A stretch of 64,000 nt of DNA from Verrucomicrobia bacterium UBA3761 (lineage in GTDB: Bacteria; Verrucomicrobiota; Kiritimatiellia; RFP12; UBA1067): NCBI GenBank assembly GCA_002371135.1, contig DFGB01000045.1:5478-69477 (forward strand), given 5' to 3'. Each line of letters begins with the position of its first letter. The first letter of the stretch is position 1. Shown here in pieces: positions 4,369 to 56,105 of this stretch. A program made the position numbers and the translations under genes. The notes beneath the pieces are model-generated. The model had not been told where the DNA came from, ran no database searches, and worked only from the letters and a program-made list of their open reading frames with translations.

Positions 4369-4439
4369 TCTTGCCAGTCTCCTTGATTGGATATTCCACG
4401 TATATTCTACCAAATTCCTTCCGCCTTGTCATATACCCG

Positions 4440-4680
4440 AAAGGGTGAAGAGGCCGCGCACGGGAGGACCGCGCTCATGCGCGGCCGAGGCAGGGAGCAA
4501 GAGATACGCTTGGCGCACAAGGAGGCGCGGCTTCAGCCGCGCAAAAACCAAAAGACGGTGCGCGGCTGAAGCCGCGCACCCCTGCTAGGGCATCCGCTTC
4601 GCGGACAGCCTTCGGCTGGGGGATATTCCTTGGCGTTAGTGGCCGCGGCTGACTGCCAACTGCCAACTGCTAACTTCCCA
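4440..4680. repeat. REP/BIME-like repeat cluster 1. It holds hairpins GCGCGGCT-TCA-AGCCGCGC at 4526..4543 and 4561..4578, one ~55-bp conserved unit B in reverse orientation at 4579..4636, and a CCAACTG tandem at 4655..4676.
   Basis: The sequence matches clusters at 11350, 20440 and 55790; the stem is a perfect 8-bp inverted repeat with a 3-nt loop, flanked by CAAGGAGG. Confidence 0.8.
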
Positions 4681-7577: not shown

Positions 7578-7745
7578 GAGGGGAGAGAAATTTTCGATTT
7601 GCGATTTACGATTTGCGATTTTTATCTCCCTTGAGAGCGCAGAGTTCGCAGAGAATTTTTCGATTTCCGATTAAACCTCTGCGGCCTCTGCGTTCTCTGC
7701 GGGAGATAAAAATGGGAAATCGCAAATCGTAAATCGTAAATCGTA
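7578..7745. repeat. Nested tandem-heptamer palindrome. Outer arms (CGATTTG/CGATTTA)x4 and their complement (CAAATCG/TAAATCG)x4 enclose inner (CGCAGAG)x2 and (CTCTGCG)x3.
   Basis: Read directly from the sequence; the element lies between the stop of gene 7750..8580 and the start of the carboxypeptidase gene. Confidence 0.85.
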
Positions 7746-7749
7746 AATT

Positions 7750-8580
7750 TTATTTCACATAATGCTTTGTCAGTTTGACGAGCGTCTTCCAGAGTTCCTC
7801 CTGGCTCTTGCACGAGCAGATCGCGTCTTGCGCGTCCTTCTTCTGGAAAGCGTTGACGAGGTCTGCGAGAAGGCGCAGGTAAAATGCGGAGACGGCGACC
7901 GGGATCGCGGAGAGGAACACCATGTGCACCTTCTCGCCTTCCCAGTCGATGCCCTCCTTGCTGACGCCGAGCGCGAGGGTGAGCGCGCCGCCTTCGACGC
8001 CGCGGACGTGCGGGAACGCGAGGCCGTTGCCAAGCGCGGTCGAGAGGATGTTCTCGCGGCTGATGGCGCCGGAGACGAGCGTATCGGCGTTGTCGATGAA
8101 GTTGTGCGCCTCCATCGCCGTCGCGAGTTCCTCGATGGCCCCGTCGCGCGTCGACGAAGAGAGCTCGGGGATCATCAATTCCTGCGCGCTGAAGCGGCAG
8201 ATGCCGACGCGGACCTCGTCGCGGTCGGGCTTTTCGGCGATGTTCTTCGGCGTGTCGTCGCCGTCCGCGAACAGGATGCGCCCGCAGCTGGAGCACGTCA
8301 CGAGGTGCTGGCCGAGGCGGACTTGCTGGTCCTGCGCGGTCGGGATCTGCATGCCGCAGACGGAGCAGGCGCCTTTGGTGCGGGCGGCGAGGACTATGTG
8401 GCTCTTCTTGTAGAGCCGCTCGTAGATCGTGGCGACCTGCGGAGAAAGCCGGCTTTTCAGCTTGTCGATCGAGTCGTTCAAGGCGTCGAGATGGCTGCCG
8501 TCGCCTGTCTGGAAATGTTCGTCGCGGATGAGCACCATCTCCTGGAGCTGGCGCATTATGTTGATCTGGCTTTTCATCAT
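7750..8580 (-). CDS. Fusion protein: N-terminal C4 zinc-ribbon (COG1579-like) and C-terminal PTS EIIA type-2 (PtsN / EIIA-Ntr-like) domain
   Basis: 276 aa; CSVCGMQIPTAQDQQVRLGQHLVTCSSCGRILF is the zinc-ribbon signature and ...LGNGLAFPHVRG... is the EIIA-2 active-site His region. An RBS AAGGGA sits 8 nt upstream. Confidence 0.65.
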   Translation of the reverse strand: MMKSQINIMRQLQEMVLIRDEHFQTGDGSHLDALNDSIDKLKSRLSPQVATIYERLYKKSHIVLAARTKGACSVCGMQIPTAQDQQVRLGQHLVTCSSCGRILFADGDDTPKNIAEKPDRDEVRVGICRFSAQELMIPELSSSTRDGAIEELATAMEAHNFIDNADTLVSGAISRENILSTALGNGLAFPHVRGVEGGALTLALGVSKEGIDWEGEKVHMVFLSAIPVAVSAFYLRLLADLVNAFQKKDAQDAICSCKSQEELWKTLVKLTKHYVK

Positions 8581-11282: not shown

Positions 11283-11349
11283 AACACTTGTATTATACAG
11301 TTTTCCGCCGAAAAAAGCAAGTGCGAAATGTTAGTTTGGAATAATGCGC

Positions 11350-11580
11350 GAGTGGGCGCTTGAACGTCAAGGAGGCGCGGCTTCAGCCGCGCCACGCTCG
11401 TTGTCGTCGCTAGGACGTGGCGCTCGGACGTGGCGCGGCTAAAGCCGCACCTCCTTGGCGCTAGGGCCGCGCACGAGGGGGCGCGAGGGGGGCGCTTGAA
11501 CGTCAAGGAGGCGCGGCTTTAGCCGCGCCACGCTCGTTGTCGTCGCTCGGGCGTGGCGCTAGGGCCGCGCGCGAGGGGGC
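11350..11580. repeat. REP/BIME-like repeat cluster 2: hairpins at 11375..11392, 11434..11451 (imperfect) and 11501..11518, with a ~57-bp direct repeat at 11355..11411 and 11482..11538.
   Basis: The motif GCGCTTGAACGTCAAGGAGGCGCGGCTT(C/T)AGCCGCGCCACGCTCGTTGTCGTCGCT occurs twice. Confidence 0.8.
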
Positions 11581-15035: not shown

Positions 15036-15148
15036 ATATTCCCCAAGTCGACGTCGAATATTATAGCACATCGCACAACGACTTTCAACTCCCCCAATAT
15101 TGCGTAGTTTCATTCCAAACTTGCATAATTCGCTCATACGGGAGGGGG

Positions 15149-15266
15149 AGTTGAAAAGTAAAAGGTTGAAAAGTTGAAAAGTAAAAAGCGCGGGAGGGCC
15201 ACGCCGCTTTGGAGACAGAGCCGTGCGTTTCAACTTTTCAACTTTTCAACTCTTCAACTTTTCAAC
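15149..15266. repeat. Tandem-heptamer palindrome: (GTTGAAAAG)n array, central spacer, (CTTTTCAAC)n array
   Basis: Read directly from the sequence. The element provides the last codons (VEKLKS) and TGA stop of the BASS transporter gene and creates false ORFs rich in FNFSTFQLF. Confidence 0.85.
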
Positions 15267-16235
15267 CATCTCTTCTCGGGCCCGCCGGGCGACGAGAAGG
15301 TTGAACACGCCTGCCATGAGCGCGCCGGAGATGGAGTGCCAGACGCAAGAGACGGCGGAGGCGACAGCGGCCTCGGGCATCGCGGGGAAGTGGCGCGCGG
15401 CGAGCACCGTCGCAAGGCCCGCGTTCTGCATGCCGACTTCGATCGAAATAGTACGCTTCTTCGCATCGGAGAACCGCGCCGCGACGCCGGTCAGGTAGCC
15501 CAGCGCGTAGCCGAGGCCGTTGTGCAAAAGGACGCCCGCGAACACGAGCGCGCCGCTCGACGCGAAGCGCTCGCCCTGCGCCGAGACTACACCGCCCACG
15601 ATCGCCGCGAGGGCCAGCACCGCCACGCCCGGCATCACTTTCATCGCTTCTCCGTATGCGCGCTTCTTGCCGTAGAGCGCGTTCAGCGCGAAACCGAGCG
15701 CCACGGGCGCGATAGTCACGTAGAGGATGCTCTTGAACATGCCCGCCGCGTCCACGTCCACGCTCTCGCCCGCGAGCCACATCATCAAAAGCGGCGTCAT
15801 CACAGGCGCGAGAAGAGTCGAGACCGTCGTCATCCCGACGGAAAACGCGACGTCCCCCTTGCAAAGGAAGCTCATGATGTTCGAAGAAACCCCGCCCGGA
15901 CAACACCCGACAAGGATGAGCCCCACTCCGACCGCCTTCGGCAGCCCCATCGCATGCACGAGAGTCCACGCGATGAGCGGCATGAGAGTATATTGCGCCG
16001 CCGCGCCGATTGCCATATCGAGCGGACGCGAGAGCAGGATGCGGAAGTCCTCGGCCTTGAGCGTCATGCCCATCGAGAGCATGATGACGCCGAGGATCGC
16101 GGTCTGCGTATCGCCGCGCACCCACGCGAACGTGCCCGGCGCGAAGAACGTCGCGACCGCGACCGCTGTTATGAACGCCGGCGTCCACTTCGCCAGCCAT
16201 GCCGATATCATTTGCAGTATTTTCATATCAGGGCA
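15246..16235 (-). CDS. Bile acid:sodium symporter (BASS/SBF) family transporter
   Basis: GLILVGCCPGGVSSNIMSFLCKGDVAFSVGMTTVSTLLAPVMTP is typical of PF01758; the start is set at MKILQMISAWLAKW. Confidence 0.8.
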   Translation of the reverse strand, partial: CPDMKILQMISAWLAKWTPAFITAVAVATFFAPGTFAWVRGDTQTAILGVIMLSMGMTLKAEDFRILLSRPLDMAIGAAAQYTLMPLIAWTLVHAMGLPKAVGVGLILVGCCPGGVSSNIMSFLCKGDVAFSVGMTTVSTLLAPVMTPLLMMWLAGESVDVDAAGMFKSILYVTIAPVALGFALNALYGKKRAYGEAMKVMPGVAVLALAAIVGGVVSAQGERFASSGALVFAGVLLHNGLGYALGYLTGVAARFSDAKKRTISIEVGMQNAGLATVLAARHFPAMPEAAVASAVSCVWHSISGALMAGVFNLLVARRAREEMVEKLKS

Positions 16236-16237
16236 TT

Positions 16238-17929
16238 TCAAACGAGCCAATTCTCCGCCTTGCGGGAGATAGCATCGTACCACGCTTGCTCGTCTTCAGC
16301 CTCGCTTGCGACAGTCATCGAATATTCACAAAAAGCCCGGACTTTGGCTGGGCTTGGCACGTAGCCGCAATTCTTCGCCTGTGTCAGCATTCCCGCGAAG
16401 CGATCCAGCGTCAACGGTATCACAACAGACTTGCCGCCGTAATGTTTGATGGGAATCCGGTGCAGCCCATAGAAATGCGAAATGGAACTTGGATTTATTG
16501 TCGGCGCGACAAAAAGGCAATATGCCGGCTTGCCGGTCTTTGCCTTAATATCGCCAAGATGTCTGGCCACGGGCTCGCCTTCGGCATCATACTGCCTGTT
16601 GCCCGACATAAGTGTCACTTCAACCGTGACGGTGAAATCGCCATAGTCGCAAATGATGTCTGCATTGTTGCCTGGCGCGGTGGAAAGTGGATTGCCGGCA
16701 TCGTCAAATGTGAAGTTGGCTTTTATATTGCCGCCATCCATCATGGTCATCGCACGCCAAGCGTTCCACTCAAGAGCAAGTGGCGGGTCGTAAACATATT
16801 TTGCTTTGATGTCTTTGAACACGCCAAGAATCTCATCGTATTTTGCAAACGACTTGAGCTCCGTGACCTGAGCGTCGATGACTGCGGCTCGCCGAGCCTC
16901 TTGTGCGTGTTTGATGCGTCGTTTGAGTTCATTCGCACTTTGCCTGCGCGCGTCAGACTCCGAATCGACAGCCCCGCTCCTTACAGCCTTCTTCAAAAGC
17001 GTTTTGCGGTCGTCTGTCAACAGTCTAGGCGCGTCTGCACAGTAAAGATGTTCACAATACGCCGCTTTGTCAACCACAAAAACCGGGTTTCGGTCGACAG
17101 TCCTCAGAATATACTCAACCTCGTCGCGCCGCGACTCGATGATTGAAATCGTCCGTCCCGGATTGCCAATCGTAACGAGACCTGTTGCGCGAAGATAGCG
17201 TACGCAAGCATCGGCATAATCGCGCATATTGCCCGCCTTGGTCTTGATGAATTTTTCAAGACTTGTTTCATGCGACTCGCGTGTCCGAATGCATCCAGAT
17301 GCAATTTCCTGCGCAAACATCGAAGAGACTATGCGCGAACGTTCGCTGCTCAAGAACTTTTTATATTGCCCCTTGCGCGCGACCTTCTCCACTCTGAACC
17401 GGCGAACGGCATCGACAATCGCATCGAAGTCGTGCCAGTCTGTCAGTTGCATGCCGAAGAGGCACAATTCATCAAATGCCAATCGCCCCAACGAATGAAC
17501 AAGCCGGAGAATCTCAAGGTATGGACGAACGCAAAACGTCCTTGCAATCTTCGGATTCGCGATGTGAAATGGCGATGGCAGCTGAAATTTAAGCAACTGC
17601 CGCAAGAGGGCTTCTTCCGCTAAATCTCCATCAAGAAAATTCGCCCCGGCGGATGTAATCGATATTGGGTCGAGATTGACGAATCCCAGAGCCTTGGGAC
17701 CGCGGGTTATGCGGTCTCTTGCGCTCAGAGCAGGGTCTTTCTGATTGTACTCGCCCTCAAATTCTGGAAGTTGGGCGAGACGTTTCATGAAAGAGGCTTG
17801 CAGCGTGGTGTTGGATACCCACCTCGCCCCTGCAAACTCGCGGACGAGCAATTCAATTTCCGGACGCATCTTGAATGGCGTCCTTGGCGATGTCACGAAG
17901 AACAGCGAAGGGCTCTTGATTTTCGCCAT
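16238..17929 (-). CDS. Putative type II restriction endonuclease (563 aa), partner of the Dam-type methyltransferase
   Basis: It follows the methyltransferase gene with 1 nt of spacing (TGAcATG), lies in a low-GC islet, and has no other recognisable family. The specificity is probably GATC-containing, inferred only from the Dam-like partner. Confidence 0.45.
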   Translation of the reverse strand: MAKIKSPSLFFVTSPRTPFKMRPEIELLVREFAGARWVSNTTLQASFMKRLAQLPEFEGEYNQKDPALSARDRITRGPKALGFVNLDPISITSAGANFLDGDLAEEALLRQLLKFQLPSPFHIANPKIARTFCVRPYLEILRLVHSLGRLAFDELCLFGMQLTDWHDFDAIVDAVRRFRVEKVARKGQYKKFLSSERSRIVSSMFAQEIASGCIRTRESHETSLEKFIKTKAGNMRDYADACVRYLRATGLVTIGNPGRTISIIESRRDEVEYILRTVDRNPVFVVDKAAYCEHLYCADAPRLLTDDRKTLLKKAVRSGAVDSESDARRQSANELKRRIKHAQEARRAAVIDAQVTELKSFAKYDEILGVFKDIKAKYVYDPPLALEWNAWRAMTMMDGGNIKANFTFDDAGNPLSTAPGNNADIICDYGDFTVTVEVTLMSGNRQYDAEGEPVARHLGDIKAKTGKPAYCLFVAPTINPSSISHFYGLHRIPIKHYGGKSVVIPLTLDRFAGMLTQAKNCGYVPSPAKVRAFCEYSMTVASEAEDEQAWYDAISRKAENWLV

Positions 17930-17930
17930 G

Positions 17931-18788
17931 TCACACCTCGTAGTTTGTGACGACGTAGTGCGTTGCTTTGGAATGGAATCGATTGCGGATATTTACCGCG
18001 TAATCCTTTGCGTATTCAAACTTCACGAGGTCGCCATAAAGTTCCTCCGTCAATGGTGTATGACCAATGATCATCAACGCACGACAACGCAATTCCCGAA
18101 AAAGTTTGGCAAGCCGGCGATGCTCGGCCTCGTCAAATCCATTTGCCAGTTCCTGATTGCCATAATCGTTGAAAACACAATCATACGGCGGATCAAGATA
18201 CATAAAATCATTCTCTCCCGCCCGCCTGAACGATTCTTCGTAATCTGCGCACAGAATCTCCGTGCGTTGCAGAAGTCGGGAATGTTCGCGTGTGACAAGT
18301 CTGGTGTTGAAATTCTCGTATCTGCCGAACGGGACATTGAAATGCCCCTGCGCATTGAACCGTATCATACCAGAGTATGACGTCTTGTTAATGAAAAAAT
18401 ATAGCGCAGCCCGGGAATATTGCGCCGGAGCAATTCCATTGTATTGGTCGCGAAGTCTATAATACAATTCTTCGTTTGCGTTGGGAATCCGATCTCCCGG
18501 ATGCATTTTCTTTCTCTCTTTGTAATCCGCCTGATTGCGCACATAAATGGCTTCGATTTCTGCCAACTCTCGCGAAAGTTCATCAAAACGATTTCGAACA
18601 TCCCTGTAGAAGTTTATCAAGGGTTCATTTATGTCCCCGATAACCGCATGTTGCGGTGCAAGAGCAAAAAAAGTCGCCCCGCCCCCTACGAAAGGCTCAT
18701 AGTACGTTTCATAATTCTGCGGAATAAACCGTTCATACCGAGGAATCTCCTTGGACTTTCCACCACGATATTTGACAAGTGGTTTCAA
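17931..18788 (-). CDS. DNA adenine methyltransferase (Dam / D12-class N6-adenine methyltransferase)
   Basis: It starts with TTG at 18788 and a strong RBS AAAGGAAAGGAGA; the N-terminus MKPLVKYRGGKSKE matches the Dam start, and EPFVGGGA and DPPY motifs follow. The longer ORF-track N-terminus is rejected. Confidence 0.85.
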   Translation of the reverse strand: MKPLVKYRGGKSKEIPRYERFIPQNYETYYEPFVGGGATFFALAPQHAVIGDINEPLINFYRDVRNRFDELSRELAEIEAIYVRNQADYKERKKMHPGDRIPNANEELYYRLRDQYNGIAPAQYSRAALYFFINKTSYSGMIRFNAQGHFNVPFGRYENFNTRLVTREHSRLLQRTEILCADYEESFRRAGENDFMYLDPPYDCVFNDYGNQELANGFDEAEHRRLAKLFRELRCRALMIIGHTPLTEELYGDLVKFEYAKDYAVNIRNRFHSKATHYVVTNYEV

Positions 18789-19006
18789 GCCGGATCTCCT
18801 TTCCTTTGCAAGGCCGATACAAGGTGCCGCGGCCATCGCAGCAAGCATCCACCCAACGCGCTGCAAAAACTCCCCGCGCGTGATGCCTTGGCTTCTTTGG
18901 CACGATTTTGCCGACGTTCCCATTTCTTCTGTTCTCAAGCCTTTCATAGCCACGACACGAATGCAATATACAATCACAACGCCTATTGCGATTCATGCAC
19001 AACATA

Positions 19007-19040
19007 TTATACCAAAACTCCCCGGTTTCCTCAACCGTGA
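19007..19040 (-). promoter_or_regulatory. Candidate promoter for the methyltransferase/endonuclease operon (TTGAGG-N17-TGGTATAAT on the minus strand)
   Basis: An extended -10 TGGTATAAT matches the family at 21915, 43353, 45524 and 59486; it implies a leader of about 220 nt. Confidence 0.4.
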
Positions 19041-19081
19041 AAGTTGCACATTGCAATTTTCCGTTTCCTCCAAATACCCCA

Positions 19082-19110
19082 TTGACCGGACGATGAGAAT
19101 TTGATACAAT
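19082..19110 (+). promoter_or_regulatory. tRNA promoter TTGACC-N17-TACAAT
   Basis: It sits 29 nt upstream of the mature tRNA 5' end. Confidence 0.55.
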
Positions 19111-19138
19111 ATGTGCCCGTTGCGGTAAACAAGCAATT

Positions 19139-19214
19139 GGCGAGATAGCTCAGTTGGTAGAGCGCAGGACTCATAAGCCTAAGGTCAAGGGTTCGATCCC
19201 CTTTCTCGCCACCA
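19139..19214 (+). tRNA. tRNA with anticodon CAT (Met, or possibly Ile2/lysidine), 76 nt including the encoded CCA
   Basis: GGCGAGATAGCTCAGTTGGTAGAGC.. anticodon loop CTCATAA ..GGTTCGATCC..TCTCGCCACCA has good acceptor, D and T stems. The anticodon stem has only 3 Watson-Crick pairs (CAGGA/GCCTA). Confidence 0.8.
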
Positions 19215-19230
19215 TTCGATTTACCTCCTA

Positions 19231-19259
19231 GTCCAGGAATTTCCTGGACTTTTTTTATT
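19231..19259 (+). terminator. Rho-independent terminator GTCCAGGAA-TT-TCCTGGAC followed by TTTTTTT
   Basis: A perfect hairpin with a U-tract directly after the tRNA. Confidence 0.8.
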
Positions 19260-20413
19260 TATTCTCCGATTGCGACGCGGATGAAGAGCGTGAAAGCGCC
19301 GGAGGGGAGTTCGCGCGCGACGTCGAACGAGAACGTGCCATCGGCGGAAACGGCGGCGTTGGCGATGCAGTCCTTCGAAAACTCGGCGTCGTCGAGTTCC
19401 GAGAGGGACGTCGCGGTCTTCACCTTGATGTCGGACGCTTTGAACGCGGCGAGCAGCGCATCCGACGCCTCCAGCTCGCACGTCAGATGCACAGTCGGGG
19501 TGGAATTGGCGACCGAAACGGAAACGCCCGTGATTTCCAAGTCCGCTTCTTCCGCCGCAGCGGTTATGACGCGCGTTTTGCCATCGTCTAAAAGCGTGTT
19601 AGCGAGCGATGGGGCGATTGAAACTTTCGTCGACGTCGTGCCTGAGCCGTTGCCTATGGGCGAAGAATCGGAGCCTGCGGTCGCCGTCACCGTCCCGCCG
19701 GTTATTGTCACCGAGTCGCATCTTGCATTAGAGCCGCTCGCGCCGCCTATGCCGGCGGAGTACTTTCCGCCCGTGGCAACAACCGTCCCGCCCGTTATCA
19801 ATATGGCGCCGCACTTTGCCAGATTGTAGCCGCCGCCAATGCCACAACCGATCGTCGTCGAAGGCGTTTTTGCCGTCACCGTCCCGCCGTTGATGGTTAT
19901 AGTGCCGCAGTCGGCCGGTTTGGCCGGTTTGCTGGAAAGACCACCCCCACCGCCAATTGCCGCGCCGTATGACGTGGATTCCGCTTCGATTATTCCCCCT
20001 TCAATGACGATATTCCCGGCGGAATTGCCTTGGAACGCGCCTATCGCGGCAGAATTGCTCCCGCCTTTGCAAATCAATTTCCCGTTCCCCTTCTCCCCGC
20101 CTTTTATTGTGAGAGTGCGATTCGCGGCGATGAATATCGCCGGTGTATTCTTAGCGGTAATCGTGTTGACGGTGTCGTCGGCGATTATGAGCTCGGCGTC
20201 GCTCTCAAAATGCAGACCGCCTGAAGTTGTGCTTGATGTCGTCAGCGTCACGTTATCAAGGGTGATGACGCTTTTATCTGTATATTTCGTTGCATAAATC
20301 GTGCCACTGAGCGTATCCTCCGTCGCAAACGCGGCCAGAGCGCCGAATGCGAATGCAAAAAACGCGCAGCCGTGACGCAGCGCGCGGATGAATGAATGCA
20401 ATTGGACTTTCAT
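19259..20413 (-). CDS. Secreted parallel beta-helix repeat protein (adhesin-like)
   Basis: It has a signal peptide MKVQLHSFIRALRHGCAFFAFAFGALAAFA and repeated GGTVTA/ITGGTVVATGG/IGGG motifs; the start is set at 20413, because the ORF-track extension runs into the REP cluster. Confidence 0.55.
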   Translation of the reverse strand: MKVQLHSFIRALRHGCAFFAFAFGALAAFATEDTLSGTIYATKYTDKSVITLDNVTLTTSSTTSGGLHFESDAELIIADDTVNTITAKNTPAIFIAANRTLTIKGGEKGNGKLICKGGSNSAAIGAFQGNSAGNIVIEGGIIEAESTSYGAAIGGGGGLSSKPAKPADCGTITINGGTVTAKTPSTTIGCGIGGGYNLAKCGAILITGGTVVATGGKYSAGIGGASGSNARCDSVTITGGTVTATAGSDSSPIGNGSGTTSTKVSIAPSLANTLLDDGKTRVITAAAEEADLEITGVSVSVANSTPTVHLTCELEASDALLAAFKASDIKVKTATSLSELDDAEFSKDCIANAAVSADGTFSFDVARELPSGAFTLFIRVAIGE

Positions 20414-20439
20414 GCGCGGTATTTTACCATATTTCATTC

Positions 20440-20890
20440 CGGCTGGCAAGCGAGAGGCCCAAAAATTTACGCCAGCGCCAAGGAATATCCCCCAGCCGAA
20501 GGCTGTCCCAAGAAGCGGATGCCCTAGCGCCAAGGAGGCGCGGCTTTAGCCGCGCTAGTCGAGCGAGGGGGGTGCGCGGGAGGGCCGCGCTTCAGCGCGG
20601 CCGAGTTATGGTGCGGCTTGAGCGCCAAGGAATATCCCCCAGCCGAAGGCTGTCCGCGAAGCGGATGCCCTAGCAGGGGTGCGCGGCTTCAGCCGCGCAT
20701 AGACGAACGAAGGGGGGTGCGCGGCTAAAGCCGCGCCTCCTTGGCGCAGACGAAGGTCGAGACTGGCGCAGACGAAGGTCGAGACTGGCGCAAGCGAAGG
20801 CCTCGCTTGGGCGAGAGTTTCAAGTTGCTTCGGGGGCACTCGCCAAACGGTCCGGGAGGGGTGTTTCGCCCCCTTTACGGGGATTGCGCG
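20440..20890. repeat. REP/BIME-like repeat cluster 3: unit B at 20463..20520 and 20616..20676; hairpins at 20538..20555, 20682..20699 and 20719..20736; a 22-bp direct repeat CAGACGAAGGTCGAGACTGGCG x2 at 20746..20789; and the palindrome GGCCGCGCTTCAGCGCGGCC at 20586..20605
   Basis: Read directly from the sequence; it shares peptides with false ORFs 20392..20673 and 55722..55913. Confidence 0.85.
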
Positions 20891-20919: not shown

Positions 20920-21492
20920 ATGAAAATGACATTTATCGCGGCAATATTCCTCGCAGCGGCATCCGGGCTCGCCCAAGGCGCCAAGAACGGCGAAATCTGG
21001 CCGGACGCGGTGACGTGGTGCCGCAAGAACGGAGTTCCGGACATCATCCTCTGCGACGTTCTGATGCCGAAGGAAGACGGCTTCACGGTCCTTGAAAACC
21101 TAAAGAAGGAATTCGACGGCGTGAAGCTCATCTTCCTCTCCGGCATGCCGCGCAAAGGCGACGAGGCGCGCGCCCGCCAGATGGGCGCCTGCGGCTACAT
21201 GCCGAAGAGCGCCGACACGAACACCCTCGCCGACATGATCGCCAAGGTCGCCGAGGGCCTCGTCGATTTCGCGACGGAATCCTACACGAACGAGAAATCG
21301 CCCTTCTCCCCCAAGGAGCGCGAAACCCTGAAGTATCTCGCGCTCGGCAAGACGCGCGAAGAGATTTCGATTATCATGGGATGCGGCATAGAAACGACGA
21401 AGACGCGCGTGACGGAAATCCGCCGCAAGCTCGACGCCGCCAACACCACCGCCGCCATCGCCCGCGCCTACGAACTCGGGTATCTGACGTAA
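20920..21492 (+). CDS. LuxR/NarL-family response regulator with an N-terminally truncated receiver domain (possibly degenerate or a pseudogene)
   Basis: The C-terminus carries a GerE HTH (ETLKYLALGKTREEISIIMGCGIETTKTRVTEIRRKL). The receiver aligns from about beta3 onwards (DIILCDVLMPKEDGF..), but the first ~35 residues with the acidic pocket are replaced by the hydrophobic MKMTFIAAIFLAAASG. An in-frame stop lies 9 nt upstream and the REP cluster abuts the gene. Confidence 0.6.
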   Translation: MKMTFIAAIFLAAASGLAQGAKNGEIWPDAVTWCRKNGVPDIILCDVLMPKEDGFTVLENLKKEFDGVKLIFLSGMPRKGDEARARQMGACGYMPKSADTNTLADMIAKVAEGLVDFATESYTNEKSPFSPKERETLKYLALGKTREEISIIMGCGIETTKTRVTEIRRKLDAANTTAAIARAYELGYLT

Positions 21493-21499
21493 GGAACCG

Positions 21500-21680
21500 T
21501 TGAAAAATAAAGTCTACTTTTCAAGCTTTCCATTTTTTATCGCAGAGACCCGAGAGGCGCAGAGTACGCAGAGAGAAAATTTTTTCGATTGTTTGATTGT
21601 TTTAAGCCTCTGCGTACTCGGCGTCTCGGCGTCTCTGCGATAAAAAATGAAAGGCTTGAAGCAATCGAAAATTCTCTTTG
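21500..21680. repeat. Tandem-heptamer palindrome: TTTTTTATCGCAGAGAC..(CGCAGAG)..centre TTTTTTCGATTGTTTGATTGTTTT..GTCTCTGCGATAAAAAA, plus a small TTGAAAA..TTTTCAA hairpin at 21500..21526
   Basis: It uses the same CGCAGAG/CGATTTG heptamers as the element at 7578..7745 and lies at the 3' end of the regulator gene. Confidence 0.85.
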
Positions 21681-23082: not shown

Positions 23083-23225
23083 TGCATTTTGCCATTTAGG
23101 GACCGATCCCGTCGCACCGGTACAAATGAAACAATGGACAAATGGCAAAATGCAATGCCAAATGCCAAATGCAAAATATAAAATGCAACGGGGAAATGGA
23201 GAACGGTGAAATGCCAAATGCCAGG
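23083..23225. repeat. Palindrome with GCAAAAT/GCCAAAT heptamer arrays: perfect 19-bp arms ATTTAGCATTGCATTTTGCCATTT / AAATGGCAAAATGCAATGCCAAAT, then (GCCAAAT/GCAAAAT) tandems
   Basis: It lies immediately downstream of ilvC, and related half-elements occur at 24395..24426 and 25650..25727. Confidence 0.8.
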
Positions 23226-24389
23226 TTTTCCATTCTTTTCATTTTCCTCTTTTCGCTTCTGACGCTTGAAGCGGCGCCAACGATCCGCCTCGTCTACGGC
23301 AAGAGCTGGAGCGAGGCGGGGCGCCGCGTCAAGAAGACGCTTGAATCGGCGGCGTTCAAATCGGCCGCCAAGGGCCGCTACCTCGTCGAATGCGTAGACG
23401 AGAGCGGCGACAAGCCGTCGCCGAAGAATCTCGGCTCGATAAAGCTCCCGGCGATTTTCGTGATATCGGAACAGGGGAATTGTTTTTTTGTAAAGGAAAA
23501 CATGCCGGCCGGCGTGGAAGCCGCGCAGATACTCGCGGCCGTGGAGCGCGTGAACAAAGTCCGGCTCGCGGCGGAAAAGGCCGGCTTCGACACGGCGGAC
23601 AAGTGCGGCGCGTTCCTCGAGCGCATGGAGAAATTCGTCGGCGGGCCGCAGCGCGTAATTTCGAAGGGCTACTACCCAGACATCTTCGACAAGCTCGTGC
23701 GGCTCGACCCGGGCGACTCCACAGGCTGGCAGCGCCACTTTACAATGGGCGACGGCATCGACATCGTAATCAAGGCCAACGAATACCGCGAGAAAGGCGA
23801 CTTCTCCGGCGGAGAAGCGTTCCTCGCCGAAGAATTCAAAAAGCCGCGCAGGCACCTCACAAAAGAGCAGACCCAGGCGCTGTTGATGGCGAAATTCGCC
23901 CTCTACCGCGAAAACGAATCCAAGCGCGACGAACTCGTCGGATTCCTCAGGCGAGTCGCGGAAGTGGGCGAGGACACGCTCTGGGGCACGAGCGCCGTCG
24001 GCTGGCTGAACATAATGAAAGAGCCTCCGCTCTCCACATACTGGGGCTGGCGCAAAGGCGACTTCAAAGGCCCGAAATTCTCGGTTCCCGTGAAGTTCGG
24101 CGCTTCGAGCAGTTTCCCGCGCCAGGGCAGATACACGATTTCGTTCACGAAAACCTCCGGCGTCAATTTCAAAATCGAATCGATTGCGATAATGGCCGGC
24201 AAGGAAGAGGCGGCCGTTCTCAAAAATCCAATCTGCCAAGGCGACACGACCTCGTTCGATTTCGACATGAAGAGGGCATGGCGAGGCAAGATCACCGCCA
24301 TCGTCGTCAATGGCGTCTCGGATCCCGACGGCAACTCCACAGGGCGTATCGACGTGAAGCGCCACATATTGAAAGCGCGCAAGAGCTAG
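23211..24389 (+). CDS. Hypothetical secreted protein (392 aa)
   Basis: The start is set at MPNARFSILFIFLFSLLTLEA (signal peptide) because the ORF-track N-terminus lies in the repeat; no recognisable domain; lower GC. Confidence 0.5.
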   Translation: MPNARFSILFIFLFSLLTLEAAPTIRLVYGKSWSEAGRRVKKTLESAAFKSAAKGRYLVECVDESGDKPSPKNLGSIKLPAIFVISEQGNCFFVKENMPAGVEAAQILAAVERVNKVRLAAEKAGFDTADKCGAFLERMEKFVGGPQRVISKGYYPDIFDKLVRLDPGDSTGWQRHFTMGDGIDIVIKANEYREKGDFSGGEAFLAEEFKKPRRHLTKEQTQALLMAKFALYRENESKRDELVGFLRRVAEVGEDTLWGTSAVGWLNIMKEPPLSTYWGWRKGDFKGPKFSVPVKFGASSSFPRQGRYTISFTKTSGVNFKIESIAIMAGKEEAAVLKNPICQGDTTSFDFDMKRAWRGKITAIVVNGVSDPDGNSTGRIDVKRHILKARKS

Positions 24390-24643: not shown

Positions 24644-25645
24644 ATGTCGATGAACTTTATTACCATAGAAGAGATAGCCGCAAAATGGGGCATAACGCCC
24701 CGCCAAGCGCGTTCGTATTGCGCCGGCAATCGCATCCCTGGGGCTATCTTGGAACACGGAGAATGGCGGATACCGGCCGATGCCGGCAAACCGGAACGCA
24801 AGCGGCGCCGGACTTTCCCCACGACCATCCTCGGAGTTCTGGAGGCAGAACGAAGTTCGCGTATTTCCGGCGGACTCTATCATCGTCTCCAGATTGACCT
24901 CGCCTACAACTCAAACCATATCGAGGGAAGCCGTCTTACACACGAGCAGACACGGTGGATCTTCGAGACGAAGACAATAGGCGAAATGGCTTCGGACATC
25001 CCCGTGGATGACATAATCGAGACGGTCAACCATTTCCGCGCCGTCGACAAGGTTATCATGACTGCCACTTCCGCATTGACCGAAGGATACATCAAAAGGC
25101 TTCATGAAATACTCAAAAGCGGCACCTCCGACAGCCGGAAGGACTGGTTTGCCGTCGGAGAATACAAACGGCTGGACAATGTAGTCGGCGAAATGGAGAC
25201 ATGCCCCGCCAAGGACGTACACCATGAGATGGCGAAACTGCTTGCGTGGTGGAAACCGGTCGAAAAAACGTTCGAGAACCTGCTGGATCTTCACGTCCGG
25301 TTCGAGCAGATTCATCCGTTTCAAGATGGCAACGGACGCGTCGGGAGGCTTGTCCTTCTCAAGGAATGCCTGAAATACAACATCACGCCGTTTGTAATCG
25401 CGGAGAATTTCAAACAGTTCTACTATCTCGGGCTTCAGGACTGGCGGCAAGGGCGTCACACGCGGCTCATGGACACTTGCCGCACTGGACAGGACGTGTT
25501 CATCCTTGGATTGCGACAGTTTGGGCATGTGAAGCTTGCGGAAAAAGCCGAGGCCGGTCAAAAGGTCCCGGAAAGACGGAGTGACAGGAAGCAGGAAAGT
25601 GTTTTGATGGAAACAACATTGACAACAGACACTGCCATGCAATAG
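24644..25645 (+). CDS. Fic/DOC-family protein with an N-terminal helix-turn-helix (excisionase/MerR-like) domain
   Basis: It carries the Fic motif HPFQDGNGRVGR and the N-terminal segment ITIEEIAAKWGITPRQARSYC; GC is about 55%, lower than the flanks. Confidence 0.85.
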   Translation: MSMNFITIEEIAAKWGITPRQARSYCAGNRIPGAILEHGEWRIPADAGKPERKRRRTFPTTILGVLEAERSSRISGGLYHRLQIDLAYNSNHIEGSRLTHEQTRWIFETKTIGEMASDIPVDDIIETVNHFRAVDKVIMTATSALTEGYIKRLHEILKSGTSDSRKDWFAVGEYKRLDNVVGEMETCPAKDVHHEMAKLLAWWKPVEKTFENLLDLHVRFEQIHPFQDGNGRVGRLVLLKECLKYNITPFVIAENFKQFYYLGLQDWRQGRHTRLMDTCRTGQDVFILGLRQFGHVKLAEKAEAGQKVPERRSDRKQESVLMETTLTTDTAMQ

Positions 25646-25649
25646 TTTT

Positions 25650-25727
25650 TCAACACAGAGGCACAGAGTTTATCGATTTTATGCCATTGAAATGATGCAA
25701 TGCCAAATGCTAAATGCCAAATAACCG
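25650..25727. repeat. Short repeat block with CACAGAG/TCGATTT and GCCAAATG/GCTAAATG units
   Basis: It mixes heptamers seen at 7578, 21500 and 23083. Confidence 0.6.
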
Positions 25728-35834: not shown

Positions 35835-35870
35835 CGGCACGAGGCCATCAGGCCCCGTGCCGCTTTTTTA
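35835..35870 (+). terminator. Rho-independent terminator CGGCACGAGGCC-ATCA-GGCCCCGTGCCG followed by TTTTTT
   Basis: A hairpin with a U-tract after the CBM48 gene. Confidence 0.8.
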
Positions 35871-35968
35871 AAGGTTGAAAAGTTGAAAGGTTGAAAGGTT
35901 GAAAAGTACAGGGATGACGCGCTTTTCAACTTTTCAACTTTTGAACTTTTCAACTTTTGAACAACTGC
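35871..35968. repeat. Tandem-heptamer palindrome (GGTTGAAAAG/GGTTGAAAG)x4 and (CTTTTCAAC/CTTTTGAAC)x4, of the same heptamer family as 15149..15266
   Basis: It sits between convergent genes and supplies the last codons (LFKS) and TGA stop of valS. Confidence 0.85.
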
Positions 35969-38667
35969 GCGAGCTTTTCGAGCTGGGCGATTTTCTCTTT
36001 GTTGTCGGCGAGTTTGCGGCGGGCCTCGGCGACGACCGCCTCCGGGGCGTGCGCGACGAAATTTTCGTTCGCGAGTTTCGCTTCGGACGCCTTCACGAAA
36101 CCGGAAAGCTTCGCTAGTTCCGCCGCGATGCGCTTGGATTCGGCCGCCTTGTCGACGAGGCCTTCCAGCGAAAGATACACCGTGCCGAACGGCGTGATCT
36201 TGGAGGGCATCGCAAGATCGCTTCCCGCCGGCGCGAACGCGACTTCCTCGGCGCGCATCGCCTTCTTGAGCGAAGAAGCCTCCGCCGCGGCGCGAGCGTC
36301 GTCCGTGGCAATCGTCACCTTGACGAACGCCGCCGGCGAAACCTTGTATTCCGCCCGCAAAGCGCGCACCGCCGTTATCGCTTCCCTCTTCGCGTTCACG
36401 AAATCGTACACCTCTTCTTCAAGCCCCCACGCGGACTTCTCCGCGTCGCTGTAGCCCTTCGGGAATTCCGCGAGCATTATCGTCTCGTCTTCCTTCAGAT
36501 AGCCAAGCTGGTGCGCGACCTCCTCGGTCACGAACGGCATGTAGGGATGCAGGAGGCGAAGCGCCTTCCAGAAGACATCGCGCAAAATCGCGAGCGCCCT
36601 CGCCTTGTCGGGCGCGTCCTTGACGTATTCGACGTACCAGTCGCAAAGCTGCGTCCAGAAGAAGTCGTACACCGCGAGCGCGCCGTCCTGGATGCGATAC
36701 TGCTCCAGAAGCGCGTTCACCTTCCTGCACGCTTTGTCGGTCGCAAGGAGAATGTGCTTCTCGTCGGAAGTCAACTCTCCAGCCGCCATAGTCCCCAGAT
36801 CCGCGACCCTGCCGCACTCTCCTTCCTGCATCTGGAAGAAACGCGCGGCGTTCCAGATTTTCGTCGAGAAATTGCGGCCGATTTCGAACTTCTCCTTGTT
36901 CACCTTCGTATCGCATTCGAGCGACGTGATGAGGGCAATCGAGAAGCGAAGAGCATCGGCCGAATACATGTCGATCAACTCCAACGGGTCGAGCGAATTG
37001 CCGAGCGACTTCGACATCTTCCGGCCTTGCGCATCTCGCACGATGCCGTGGATGACGATATTCTTGAACGGCGGCTTGCCCATGAAGTGAATGCCGGCCA
37101 TCATCATGCGAGCGACCCAGAAAAAGATGATGTCCTGCGCCGTCACGAGATCGCTCGTCGGGTAGTAGTAGTCGAGATCCTTCGTCTTTTCCGGCCAGCC
37201 AAGCGTGGAGAACGGCCACAGCCACGAAGAAAACCACGTATCGAGCACGTCCTCGTCCTGCGAAAGGACGGGCGGCTCGGAGCATTCGAGCCCCTTCGCC
37301 TTCATCAGGGCGACGGCCTTCTTGCGCGCCTCTTCGAGCGTCTCGGCGACCACGGTCTCGCACTCGCCGTCGATGTCGAAATAATACGCCGGGATGCGGT
37401 GGCCCCACCAGAGCTGGCGCGAGATGCACCAGTCCTGGATGTTCTCCATCCAGTTGAAATAAATCTTCGACCAGCGCTCGGGGACGAACTTCACAGACCC
37501 GTTGCGCACAGCCTCGATGGCAGGCTCGGCGAGCGGTTTCATCTTGACGAACCACTGCTTGGAAAGACGCGACTCCACCACCTCGTGGCAGCGGTAGCAA
37601 TGGCCGACCTGGTTGTCGTAGTCCTCGATATGGTCGAGGAAGCCGCCCGCCTCGAGATCGGCGACGAGCGCCTCGCGGCATTTGAAGCGATCCATGCCAG
37701 AATATTTCGCGCCGGCGAGGTCGTTCATCGTCCCGTCACCGTTCATGATGTTGATCTCTTCGAGACCGTGGCGCTTGCCGACGAGGAAGTCGTTGGGGTC
37801 GTGCGCCGGCGTGATCTTCACGATGCCGGTGCCGAACTCCTTCTCCACGTAGTCATCGCTGATAACGGGAATCTCGCGGCCCGTGAGCGGCAGAATCACA
37901 TTCTTGCCCACAAGATGCGCATAGCGCTCGTCCTTCGGGTTCACGGCGACGGCGGTATCGCCCGGCAGAGTCTCCGGACGCGTCGTCGCCACCATCACAT
38001 AGTCGGCGTAAGGCTCGCCGGCGACGCCCTTCGCGCTGCCGACGACGGGATAGCGCACATACCAGAGGTGGCCGTGGTGGGCTTCGTGCTCGACTTCGTC
38101 GTTCGCGAGCGCCGTCCCGCAGCGCGGGCACCAGTTGACGATGTAGTTGCCCTTGTAGACGAGCCCTTCGTCGTAGAGTTGCGTGAACACCTTCGCCACG
38201 GCGCGCGAGCAACCTTCGTCGAACGTGAAACGCTCGCGCTGCCAGTCCGTCGAATTGCCCAGCATGCGCTGCTGGTGGACGATCGTCCCGCCATACTGCT
38301 TCTTCCATTCCCAGACGCGCTCCACAAACGCCTCGCGTCCGAGGTCCTGACGGCGCTTGCCTTCCTTGCGCAACGCCTTTTCGACCACGTTCTGCGTCGC
38401 AATGCCGGCGTGGTCCGTGCCGGGCAGCCACAGCGTGTTGAAGCCGCTCATGCGCTTCCACCTGACGAGGATATCCTGGATCGTCTGGTTCAACGCGTGC
38501 CCCATGTGCAAAATGCCCGTCACGTTCGGCGGCGGGATTACGACCGAATACGGCGTTCCTTCGCCCGGCTCGGAATGAAAATAGCCCTTCTTCTCCCAGA
38601 TAGGATACCACTTGGCCTCGGCGGCCTTCGCATCGTAATGCTTTTCCATGATTGTCTCGTTCTTCAA
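35950..38667 (-). CDS. valS: Valine--tRNA ligase
   Basis: 905 aa with HMGH and KMSKS motifs (PPPNVTGILHMGHAL; KMSKSLGN) and a C-terminal coiled coil; the start may be the MEK at 38649. Confidence 0.95.
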   Translation of the reverse strand: MKNETIMEKHYDAKAAEAKWYPIWEKKGYFHSEPGEGTPYSVVIPPPNVTGILHMGHALNQTIQDILVRWKRMSGFNTLWLPGTDHAGIATQNVVEKALRKEGKRRQDLGREAFVERVWEWKKQYGGTIVHQQRMLGNSTDWQRERFTFDEGCSRAVAKVFTQLYDEGLVYKGNYIVNWCPRCGTALANDEVEHEAHHGHLWYVRYPVVGSAKGVAGEPYADYVMVATTRPETLPGDTAVAVNPKDERYAHLVGKNVILPLTGREIPVISDDYVEKEFGTGIVKITPAHDPNDFLVGKRHGLEEINIMNGDGTMNDLAGAKYSGMDRFKCREALVADLEAGGFLDHIEDYDNQVGHCYRCHEVVESRLSKQWFVKMKPLAEPAIEAVRNGSVKFVPERWSKIYFNWMENIQDWCISRQLWWGHRIPAYYFDIDGECETVVAETLEEARKKAVALMKAKGLECSEPPVLSQDEDVLDTWFSSWLWPFSTLGWPEKTKDLDYYYPTSDLVTAQDIIFFWVARMMMAGIHFMGKPPFKNIVIHGIVRDAQGRKMSKSLGNSLDPLELIDMYSADALRFSIALITSLECDTKVNKEKFEIGRNFSTKIWNAARFFQMQEGECGRVADLGTMAAGELTSDEKHILLATDKACRKVNALLEQYRIQDGALAVYDFFWTQLCDWYVEYVKDAPDKARALAILRDVFWKALRLLHPYMPFVTEEVAHQLGYLKEDETIMLAEFPKGYSDAEKSAWGLEEEVYDFVNAKREAITAVRALRAEYKVSPAAFVKVTIATDDARAAAEASSLKKAMRAEEVAFAPAGSDLAMPSKITPFGTVYLSLEGLVDKAAESKRIAAELAKLSGFVKASEAKLANENFVAHAPEAVVAEARRKLADNKEKIAQLEKLAQLFKS

Positions 38668-38703: not shown

Positions 38704-38825
38704 GAGGGAAGAGGGAAGAGGGAAGAGGGAAGAGGGAAGAGGGAAGGGGGAAATGTGAAAATGTCTTTGCCGCAGTCGGGCGGATGCCGCCAACCGCCGC
38801 ATCATTTTCACATTTCCACATTTTC
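38704..38825. repeat. (GAGGGAA)x6 microsatellite followed by the palindrome GGGGGAAATGTGAAAATG..CATTTTCACATTTCC
   Basis: It lies in the divergent region between the valS start and the GH43 start; a REP-like hairpin GGGCCGCGCTTCAGCACGGCGCC follows at about 38843. Confidence 0.8.
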
Positions 38826-38917
38826 TGTCGCTCTGGGCTAAAGGGCCGCGCTTCAGCACGGCGCCTACCCGAACGGAGTATTGCCTTACAGGGCCTGGAT
38901 ATGATACAATTCCCGCC

Positions 38918-49777: not shown

Positions 49778-49831
49778 ACTGCGATTTTACCACAATCCCC
49801 CAACTTTGCGCAAGGGGGAAATTTGAGATTT

Positions 49832-50030
49832 TTTGGGAGGGTTGGGAGGGTTGGGAGAATTGGGATAAATTGGGAGGATTGGGATTATTGGGAAAATTAG
49901 GCGCTATAGACTCTCCCAATCCCAACTCTCCCAATCTATCCCAATCCTCCCAACTATCCCAACCCTCCCACAAAAACAAGCGGGCGGGGTTGCCCCCGCC
50001 CGCGCTTCGGGAGGGACGCGCTTCAGCGCG
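49832..50030. repeat. Tandem-heptamer palindrome (TTGGGAG/TTGGGAT)x7 .. (CTCCCAA/ATCCCAA)x7, followed by the hairpins GCGGGCGGGGTTGCCCCCGCCCGC (49978..50001) and the REP-like GACGCGCTTCAGCGCGTC (50013..50030)
   Basis: Read directly from the sequence; it lies between the giant gene stop and the four-helix gene start. Confidence 0.85.
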
Positions 50031-50059
50031 TCCACACCCGTTGTCAAGGCATTCAAGCC

Positions 50060-55483: not shown

Positions 55484-55789
55484 CTTTTGTTATCCTTTTT
55501 TGGGGTTTTGCAAAAAACACATGCGCCGAGCGCCATGCATGTGCACGGCGATTGTGCATGTATGTTTTTGAAATCGCATCCGGCCTGCCGGAAATGGAGG
55601 AAACGAGCATGGCGCAACGCCCGGCATCCGCACATACGGCCGCCTGCCGGGAGAATCTCGTCTCGTTGCGCTTGTTATAGCACCGTATCAAAAACATTCC
55701 TCCTATCATCATTGTATTTCATTGTATCAAAAATCCTGCGCGGATGTCAATAGGGGATTTTTTGCCAGGGGTCTGCGGCCTTGGGCAAG

Positions 55790-56105
55790 CGCGGACCTTC
55801 CGTATACGGCCCTAGCGCCAAGGAATATCCCCCAGCGGTACGAGCTCGAAACGCGGCTTGAGCGCCAAGGAATATCCCCCAGCCGAAGGCTGTCCGCGAA
55901 GCGGATGCCCTAGCAGGTGTGCGCGGCTTTAGCCGCGCACACCCTCGTTCGACTATGCGCGGCTGAAGCCGCGCCTCCTTGGCGATAGGCCTGCCGCACC
56001 GCCTGCGCTTGACTGGCGCAGAAACGGTGCTCGGCTGGCGCAGAGAAGACGCTCGGCTGGCGCAGAGTCGGAAGTTCGCTAGGGGGCGGTCGGCAATCGG
56101 TCGGG
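55790..56105. repeat. REP/BIME-like repeat cluster 4: unit B at about 55858..55915 with a partial copy at 55816..55835, and hairpins at 55921..55938 and 55957..55974
   Basis: The sequence is nearly identical to cluster 3. Confidence 0.85.

Follow-up and report, generated by a model that had tools for sequence, protein, structure and literature searches.

A probable new family of hairpin-forming, REP-like intergenic repeats in a member of the Kiritimatiellae

Four clusters of short palindromes are evident in a stretch of 64,000 nucleotides from Verrucomicrobia bacterium UBA3761 (contig DFGB01000045.1), referred to here as the window, and they raise the question of what kind of element they are and how it came to recur. 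An earlier note, drawn from the letters of the sequence, had described them as a clustered family resembling repetitive extragenic palindromic (REP) sequences and bacterial interspersed mosaic elements (BIMEs), in four clusters and both orientations. Our analysis leads to the same view: ten hairpins lie in exactly the clusters named there, they form inverted doublets of a head and a palindrome, they are extragenic and polymorphic between strains, and further copies occur outside the window. We consider it likely that the clusters represent a new, lineage-restricted family of non-coding, hairpin-forming repeats similar to REPs, to their inverted doublets (REPINs) and to BIMEs, a class assignment that follows from the match to published REPIN features together with the mosaic of recurring modules.

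The palindrome GCGCGGCT-NN-AGCCGCGC is found ten times in the window at one mismatch or fewer (at 4525, 4560, 11375, 11433, 11511, 20538, 20681, 20719, 55921 and 55957), where 0.02 matches are expected from dinucleotide-preserving shuffles of the 64 kb, and it is restricted to the four clusters. Its arms are 8 nt long, as the note had proposed for the stem, while the loop between them is a dinucleotide (TC, TT, AA or GA) and not the trinucleotide given there. A conserved unit, put at about 55 bp in the note, also exists, and measures 51 nt; it has three exact copies (4584-4634 on the minus strand, 20624-20674 and 55864-55914 on the plus strand) against an expectation of 0. A variant of it occupies 20477-20527, and a piece of its 5' end recurs at 55817-55838. 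All ten hairpins and every copy of the 48-nt module described below are intergenic, in a window of which 8.8% is intergenic DNA, and the family occupies only four of the 16 intergenic gaps of at least 100 nt. In other assemblies of the same organism, the contigs that encode identical proteins invariably end at a cluster, as short-read contigs do at multi-copy repeats. The units might instead have been degraded tRNAs or remnants of insertion sequences (IS), two of the outcomes that the note had named as speaking against its reading; no tRNA remnant, known RNA family, or plasmid- or IS-like DNA was recognised in the cluster sequences, and identity as a tRNA remnant was rejected.

Aligning the three module-bearing units and inspecting the flanks of all hairpins resolved an elementary unit of about 29 nt, consisting of a head, (C)GCCAAGGAGG, with CGCCAAGGAGG as its core, followed by the imperfect palindrome CGCGGCT-TY-AGCCGCG, which spans 18-26 nt and has a 2-nt non-palindromic centre. 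Read from the head side the loop is T-Y in 10/10 hairpins, and the unit is therefore asymmetric. Inverted doublets of this unit, heads outward, are present in all four clusters, with spacers of 16-40 nt that are unrelated between loci; each doublet folds into one long hairpin, and orientations alternate in every cluster. In three of the doublets the 48-nt module TATCCCCCAGCCGAAGGCTGTCCGCGAAGCGGATGCCCTAGCAGGGGT lies between AAGGA and the palindrome, its presence or absence being independent of the doublet. The module, whose ends are TATCCCCC…CCCTAGCAGGGGT (the latter end given also as AGGGGT), folds on itself as single-stranded DNA into a CCCC/GGGG stem closing two GAA-loop mini-hairpins, which are disrupted by mutation in some copies (e.g., 20477-20527). 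The composite of doublet and module folds with an outer stem of head against inverted head and two branches, the module and the long doublet hairpin, both strands folding about equally well. Composite z-scores range from -7.2 to -7.5 as DNA and from -5.2 to -6.5 as RNA, and those of doublets and composites together from -3.9 to -8.6 as DNA. The modules that recur are the 48-nt module, a 22-nt tandem unit and the CCCTAGC/GCCAAGGA junctions. The four clusters, with the variant palindromes found near them and elsewhere, are laid out as follows.

4515..4635, minus strand: composite of cluster 1, with head CGCCAAGGA, module (4578-4625), palindrome 1, T-rich spacer and palindrome 2
4557-4580 and 4525-4542: palindrome 1 (loop TC on the minus strand) and palindrome 2 (with inverted head CCTCCTTG) of cluster 1
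11354..11573, plus strand: cluster 2, one and a half doublets, with units at 11365-11392 (plus), 11433-11460 (minus) and 11501-11528 (plus)
20474..20555, plus strand: left part of cluster 3, a variant module (20477-20527) with its second mini-hairpin disrupted, then a head-and-palindrome unit (20527-20555)
20583..20602, no strand assigned: variant palindrome GGCCGCGCT-TC-AGCGCGGCC, a perfect 9-bp palindrome with the CTTCAG centre of the family and another stem
20613..20747, plus strand: composite of cluster 3, with a degenerate half-palindrome GCGGCTTGAGCGCC, head CGCCAAGGA, module (20633-20680) and palindromes 1 and 2
20681-20698 and 20719-20736: palindrome 1 and palindrome 2 (with CCTCCTTGGCGC) of cluster 3, separated by a 20-nt spacer
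20739..20814, plus strand: 22-nt tandem repeat TGGCGCAGACGAAGGTCGAGAC of cluster 3, about three copies, beginning within the right head of the unit
38843..38865, no strand assigned: imperfect variant GGCCGCGCTTCAGCACGGCGCC, not among the perfect palindromes of at least 7 bp
50014..50033, no strand assigned: solo variant palindrome GGACGCGCT-TC-AGCGCGTCC, a perfect 9-bp palindrome just 3' of the stop of the 1807-aa gene
55814..55838, plus strand: 5' fragment of cluster 4, head plus module (AGCGCCAAGGAATATCCCCCAGC), which occurs in the relative L029 too
55853..55984, plus strand: composite of cluster 4, with head, module (55873-55920), palindrome 1 (55916-55943, 13-bp stem), 18-nt spacer ACACCCTCGTTCGACTAT and palindrome 2 (55957-55974, with CCTCCTTGGCG)
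56011..56075, plus strand: 22-nt tandem repeat of cluster 4 (TGGCGCAGA plus 13 variable nt), three copies

Several of these parts are near-copies of one another. Positions 4559-4635 of cluster 1 are 100% complementary to 20623-20699 of cluster 3, the composite of cluster 4 is a 98% identical direct repeat of that of cluster 3, and within cluster 3 the 29 nt of the unit at 20527-20555 recur without a mismatch, in inverted orientation, at 20719-20747. Common to clusters 3 and 4, too, are the 22-nt tandem repeat with its conserved word TGGCGCAGA and a diverged tail, which in cluster 3 extends to about 20870. The fold energies of the cluster 3 composite as RNA are -81.3 and -85.4 kcal/mol (z -5.2 and -6.5), and the 96-nt doublet of cluster 2 folds at -40.6 kcal/mol (z -6.9). 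Some details of the note were revised in this way: the direct repeat that it had given as about 57 bp in cluster 2 is 84 nt long, with 90% identity and a 136-nt period; the 22-bp repeat assigned to cluster 3 is indeed there and is also found in cluster 4 (56011-56064); and two of its variant hairpins are perfect 9-bp palindromes (20583-20602 and 50014-50033), the one near 38843 being imperfect and of doubtful membership in the family.

Comparison with relatives shows these clusters changing at orthologous loci. Ten loci (L021-L030) stand at about 94.5% nucleotide identity to the window and a further set (L019-L020, L031-L035) at 71-76%. In the closer set clusters 1, 2 and 4 are found at the same loci, with differences. 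At cluster 1, four relatives (L021-L024) carry the same doublet in the same place and with the same spacer but lack the 48-nt module, an empty site; since the module and palindrome 1 of the window copy are 100% identical over 77 nt to cluster 3, the cluster 1 module is a recent acquisition, gained either through gene conversion or through insertion. Among otherwise identical relatives, palindrome 2 of this cluster has GA or TT as its loop. At cluster 2 the relatives have a single doublet and a different GC-rich module next to the rnfE promoter, and the window has an extra 136-nt tandem copy.

The most exact change concerns cluster 4. The whole cluster is present in L029, where the 18-nt spacer is the precise reverse complement of that in the window (ATAGTCGAACGAGGGTGT in one strain, ACACCCTCGTTCGACTAT in the other) while palindromes, loops and flanks are unchanged; L029 also has four of the 22-nt units against three in the window, and it departs from the window at ~55765, precisely at the edge of the cluster nearest the promoter, which is where the 1807-aa gene, specific to the strain, begins. 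For the spacer inversion the best explanation is a template switch during replication between the inner arms AGCCGCGCA/TGCGCGGCT, a process known to invert spacers between short inverted repeats (PMC8604942), and a recombinase is unlikely as its cause because the inverted segment is only 16-18 bp long and holds no promoter. An inversion of the whole segment, loops included, was also considered as the reason why clusters 3 and 4 differ; a spacer inversion together with C or T loop alleles accounts for that difference equally well, so that only the inversion between the window and L029 is firm. The spacers of clusters 1 and 2 are inverted in none of 5-8 relatives.

The family appears to be confined to this close lineage. 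No copy was found in ~50 kb of non-redundant sequence from the relatives at 71-76% identity, nor in a ~21-kb histidine kinase-response regulator locus (L016-L018) that shares only an 87%-identical response regulator gene with the window, ~70 kb in total, although the assemblies of the closer relatives did span clusters. In relatives at 71% identity the same genes that flank cluster 2, for an SBF transporter and rnfE, are joined by a 72-nt gap with no repeat.

The module has further copies elsewhere. A 20-mer of the module, used against metagenome contigs, recovered a solo 48-nt module (L011); a match in L012 was rejected as chance. In L036, GGTAGG stands on one side of the module and a different palindrome, GCGCGGACTCCGGCCGCGC, on the other, and an empty GGTAGG-plus-palindrome copy stands 240 nt downstream of the filled one, so that the module, which occupies the head/palindrome junction in both the window and L036, is common to two different repeat families. 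The L036 units have a GTAG-type head, whereas GTAGG is absent from the window units in every cluster, and some related L036 units lie inside called open reading frames (ORFs). A six-frame peptide query with the units gave two marginal protein matches containing YPPAEGCPRSGCPSRGAR, which are real translations of the module; one of them is encoded on the contig of L036. Scans of viral contigs for the family gave no match, nor did a protein search with the spurious 123-aa ORF that runs across cluster 4, and the head-plus-palindrome pattern in genome contigs returned five single matches only, in unrelated phyla.

Two observations stand beside these searches. In L036, positions 118-1388 hold two adjacent paralogous ORFs, one of them with DUF3791, in which GGTAGG-plus-palindrome units, the module and short arrays stand in-frame between two conserved motifs, WYxYPV and VNELWLFQG; either repeats have inserted in-frame, in the manner of the palindromic elements of Rickettsia, or the ORFs are mis-called. 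The exact 24-mer AAGGAGG+GCGCGGCTNNAGCCGCGC occurs once each in L003-L007, metagenome-assembled genomes of five unrelated groups (two Acidobacteriota, Planctomycetota, Gaiella and Elusimicrobiota), which is more than uniform chance would give; these matches are probably convergent, generic GC-rich hairpins of the terminator-like kind.

The position of the module invites a more specific suggestion, namely that it is itself a miniature mobile element hitch-hiking on REP-like repeats and inserting at the head/palindrome junction of at least two families. Insertion into these repeats, of the AAGGAGG and the GGTAGG type, would presumably rely on the HUH enzyme that mobilises them and on its cutting and joining of single strands. 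We regard this as a long shot. If true, however, the module would be among the smallest nested mobile DNAs known, and it would mark the cleavage point of the enzyme in a phylum from which no REP/RAYT system (RAYT, REP-associated tyrosine transposase) is known to have been described.

How might the family as a whole persist? We suggest that the units survive and spread as selfish or neutral passengers in promoter-distal intergenic DNA, that gene conversion may keep the copies alike and/or a trans-acting enzyme recognising folded single-stranded DNA may duplicate them, and that an HUH/Y1 (RAYT-like) transposase encoded elsewhere in the genome would be the most likely candidate for this enzyme; the family may be dispersed genome-wide. 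The hairpins themselves could cause local instability, in the form of template-switch spacer inversion, tandem duplication, change in repeat number and rearrangement breakpoints, and individual copies may have been co-opted, e.g., palindrome 1 of cluster 1 with its T-rich spacer as a terminator.

REP families typically number tens to hundreds of dispersed copies per genome, and their cognate RAYT is usually a single-copy gene flanked by REPs. Indirect indications of copy number are the density of four clusters per 64 kb, the contig ends at clusters in other assemblies, and the additional loci L011 and L036. Several observations weigh against the assignment. What has been seen amounts to the four clusters of the window and two sequenced external copies (L011 and L036), a third (P0077) being suggested at the protein level only. 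Clusters 3 and 4 are homologous over about 255 nt, and part of the multiplicity, at these two clusters, is by their alignment a matter of segmental duplication rather than transposition. Gene conversion alone can, on the sequence comparison, explain the filled and empty states of cluster 1 without transposition, given that the hairpin loop changed together with the module. None of the genes in the window codes for a RAYT (TnpA_Y1, PF01797), an IS200-type or other transposase, or a recombinase, and the heads of its units are AAGGAGG or …CAGGGGT, not the GT[AG]G that RAYT-associated REPs typically have.

Cluster 1 is flanked by genes for a sugar transferase and a GH95-GH31 protein, and cluster 2 by a 342-aa gene and rnfE. 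Cluster 3 has the gene of a beta-helix protein on one side and that of a truncated response regulator of LuxR type on the other, and cluster 4 separates a 646-aa gene from the 1807-aa gene. The names carried by near-identical RnfE proteins, and by homologues of the response regulator, assign the window to the Kiritimatiellae. The following promoter-like sites separate the clusters from the genes downstream.

4404..4432, minus strand: predicted promoter of the GH95-GH31 gene, ATGACA-17-TAGAAT, between cluster 1 and the gene
11292..11320, minus strand: probable promoter of rnfE, TTGCTT-17-TGtTATAAT (extended -10), found by eye between cluster 2 and the gene and conserved in relatives
20421..20449, minus strand: predicted promoter of the beta-helix gene, TTGCCA-17-TAAAAT, just outside cluster 3
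55721..55750, minus strand: predicted promoter of the 1807-aa gene, TTGACA-18-TACAAT, just outside cluster 4

Since a predicted promoter stands between each cluster and its gene, the clusters probably lie outside the 5' untranslated regions and mRNAs of the downstream genes. Units are oriented in the sense of the flanking genes in clusters 1 and 3 and antisense in cluster 4. The AAGGAGG word, which the note had offered as a Shine-Dalgarno-like site, is not supported in that role: it is paired with CCTCCTT in every predicted fold, lies roughly 85-400 nt from the nearest flanking start codons with predicted promoters intervening, and belongs to a unit of inconsistent orientation. The note had also placed three clusters before very large secreted proteins, which holds for two of the four downstream genes, a weak pattern with n = 4; cluster 2 precedes rnfE, and the beta-helix protein, with only 384-392 aa, is not very large. 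At cluster 1, palindrome 1 with GTCTTTTGGTTTTT scores as terminator-like on the transcribed strand and is conserved in relatives, and this copy, judged by its sequence, probably terminates the upstream operon; T-runs are absent from the other clusters. At cluster 2, the inverted head (CCTCCTTGACG) supplies a -35-like hexamer, TTGACG, to a weak promoter-like site (11341-11370; 9 of 12 matches) facing rnfE. At the beta-helix gene, the predicted -10 ends 8 nt before the ATG at 20413 (20411-20449), which would mean a leaderless mRNA or else an error in the database start at 20437.

The response regulator beside cluster 3 (20920-21492) is indeed truncated, as the note had held. Its receiver domain begins at profile position 33, its homology to intact 199-aa relatives starts near 21004, and compared with relatives (L013, L016) it has lost the first ~37 residues and the partner histidine kinase, with cluster 3 adjoining the breakpoint; the new 28-residue N-terminus resembles a signal peptide. 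The beta-helix protein (19259-20437) and the 1807-aa protein (50060-55483) are singletons at 90% clustering, and this, together with the divergence of L029 at the edge of cluster 4, indicates that the clusters border strain-specific genes for large proteins.

Among other explanations, the clusters might be miniature inverted-repeat transposable elements (MITEs), i.e., deletion derivatives of an IS that have CGCCAAGGAGGCGCGGCT… as terminal inverted repeats and are mobilised in double-stranded form by a DDE transposase whose gene lies elsewhere. Doublets and composites do carry terminal inverted repeats with arms of 9-32 nt, their size of 96-135 nt is MITE-like, and they vary in presence and copy number among strains. 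However, no target-site duplication was found at any unit boundary in clusters 1-4, at filled or empty sites, single head-and-palindrome units stand alone (20527-20555, 11501-11528), relatives have the doublets of clusters 1, 2 and 4 in identical positions, so that no insertion of a doublet is seen, and neither the window nor the 36 fetched loci contain a parent IS; we judge such an origin unlikely. The repeats could instead serve the host as terminators or insulators, as stabilisers of mRNA 3' ends, or as platforms for nucleoid proteins or gyrase, in which case repetition would reflect function and not mobility. Three clusters lie between co-directional genes, after the stop codon and before the next promoter, the terminator-like hairpin and T-run of cluster 1 are on the transcribed strand and conserved in relatives, and clusters are kept at the same loci at about 94.5% identity. 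A function of this kind sits poorly with an orientation that is inconsistent relative to transcription (cluster 4 being antisense), with the lack of a T-run at most hairpins, with the terminator-like hairpin that the gene upstream of cluster 2 already possesses, and with module content, spacer orientation and copy number that vary freely among close strains; relatives at 71% identity do without the repeat in the 72-nt gap between the same genes, and the mini-hairpins of the module are broken by mutation in some copies. As a general account of the clusters it seems improbable to us.

That the clusters are copies of a small structured RNA gene or cis-regulatory leader would accord with the strongly stable, closed, three-branched fold, with the 97-100% identity of three copies over 77-87 nt, and with a sub-threshold Rfam match to PrrB/RsmZ. 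This match reached 20 bits (E 0.018) against a gathering score of 44, and the identity was rejected since it falls below that score and the GGA motifs are paired and not in loops. Furthermore, no Rfam family scores at threshold, no promoter-like site precedes the unit on its own strand, the units face both ways relative to neighbouring genes, relatives dispense with the module at cluster 1, and both strands fold equally well, as a DNA palindrome would and an RNA would not, all of which makes an RNA gene very improbable. Least of all do we favour invertons, that is, recombinase-driven switches controlling the adjacent genes for large surface or secreted proteins. The exact inversion between palindromes that separates the window from L029 at the same locus would suit such a switch, as would the like difference between clusters 3 and 4 and the strain-specific large-protein genes adjoining two clusters. 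Yet the segment measures only 16-18 bp, between inverted repeats of 9 bp, and is much too short for synapsis by known invertases; no promoter-like motif occurs in it, the predicted downstream promoters being outside the clusters; and no recombinase gene is present in the window, although master invertases can act in trans from elsewhere in the genome. The uninverted spacers of clusters 1 and 2 in 5-8 relatives speak against a switch as well, and template switching accounts for such inversions (PMC8604942).

A second type of repeat is present in many other intergenic gaps of the window, namely short-period tandem arrays of 7-9 nt (e.g., TTGAAAAG, TTGGGAGG, ATTTGCGA, and the words CGCAGAG, ATGCCAA and GGGAAGA). 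These arrays are inverted pairs that would form long imperfect hairpins, and the same types recur in relatives; sites are 4648-4676, 7588-7750, 15146-15274, 21520-21660, 23150-23234, 25695-25723, 35863-35970, 38705-38830 and 49829-49975 in the window, and L029 1-260, L030 1-210, L011 and L036 outside it. Their CGCAGAG word is also found in the 22-nt repeat of clusters 3 and 4. The arrays look like a second, separate repeat system of the lineage. Two further features of the window concern gene content. At a window average of ~60% G+C, a low-GC segment (about 0.52; 16238-19214) adjoining tRNA-Met (19139-19214) encodes an AlwI-type restriction endonuclease and a D12-class adenine methyltransferase and is probably an acquired restriction-modification island. 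A Fic/DOC-family gene with an HTH domain (24644-25645), between a KARI-adjacent gene and a Na+/H+ exchanger gene, is absent from the syntenic region of L019 and L020.

If the clusters are REP-like repeats, as we favour, they extend the REP/REPIN/BIME type to the Kiritimatiellae, gut and rumen polysaccharide degraders of the Planctomycetes-Verrucomicrobia-Chlamydiae (PVC) superphylum; our literature search found no report of REP-type repeats in this group, which a survey of TnpA_Y1 (PMC6006769) omits. They also explain why short-read assemblies of the organism break where they do, and the strain comparisons provide direct snapshots of repeat evolution in the gain or loss of modules, exact spacer inversion, tandem duplication and change in repeat number. 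Two of the four clusters are at breakpoints of strain-specific genes (the truncated regulator with the beta-helix gene, and the 1807-aa gene), and the repeats may thus help to shuffle the accessory repertoire of surface proteins. In kind, the family is unsurprising, an ordinary example of known selfish DNA.

The closest counterpart is provided by the REPINs of Pseudomonas fluorescens SBW25 and their RAYT transposases (Bertels & Rainey 2011; PMC3116915, PMC3337134), which are inverted REP doublets with a central dinucleotide that marks orientation, no two spacers alike, and an arrangement in tandem arrays (PMC3337134). The window family shares with them GC-rich imperfect palindromes with a GGCTT..AGCC-type centre, an orientation-marking central dinucleotide (TT/AA in SBW25, TY/RA here), inverted units that together with a poorly conserved spacer form one long hairpin, an extragenic location, tandemly repeated doublets, and T-runs by which some copies act as terminators, as is probable for cluster 1 here. 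It differs in that no RAYT gene could be linked to it, in the head CGCCAAGGAGG where canonical RAYT-associated REPs have as their hallmark a 5' GT[AG]G at the hairpin foot (PMC6006769), in spacers that are short (16-40 nt) and mostly without a hairpin of their own, in the nested 48-nt module, and in a host from the Kiritimatiellae.

Other families resemble the clusters in part. As in the E. coli BIMEs, the palindromic unit alternates with a few recurring non-palindromic modules and the number of units per cluster is variable, although the sequences are visibly unrelated to the enterobacterial Y/Z REPs and the clusters lie upstream of promoters, whereas BIMEs are mostly found inside operon 3' regions. 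The BIMEs of Escherichia coli consist of REPs in alternating orientation joined by a few linker motifs. BOX elements of Streptococcus pneumoniae and the Correia/NEMIS elements of Neisseria are intergenic repeats that are modular or bounded by terminal inverted repeats, and the window repeats are similarly small, non-coding and modular, with strong secondary structure, variable internal modules and a location near promoters, but show neither the TA target duplication of Correia nor the boxA/B/C order of BOX. Insertions that target REPs, by IS1397, ISKpn1 and other IS, were reportedly described by Tobes and Pareja in 2006. The 48-nt module recalls these in occurring only at a fixed position between head and palindrome, in two repeat families (window and L036), while differing in being 48 nt long and non-coding, and its spread may reflect gene conversion rather than insertion.

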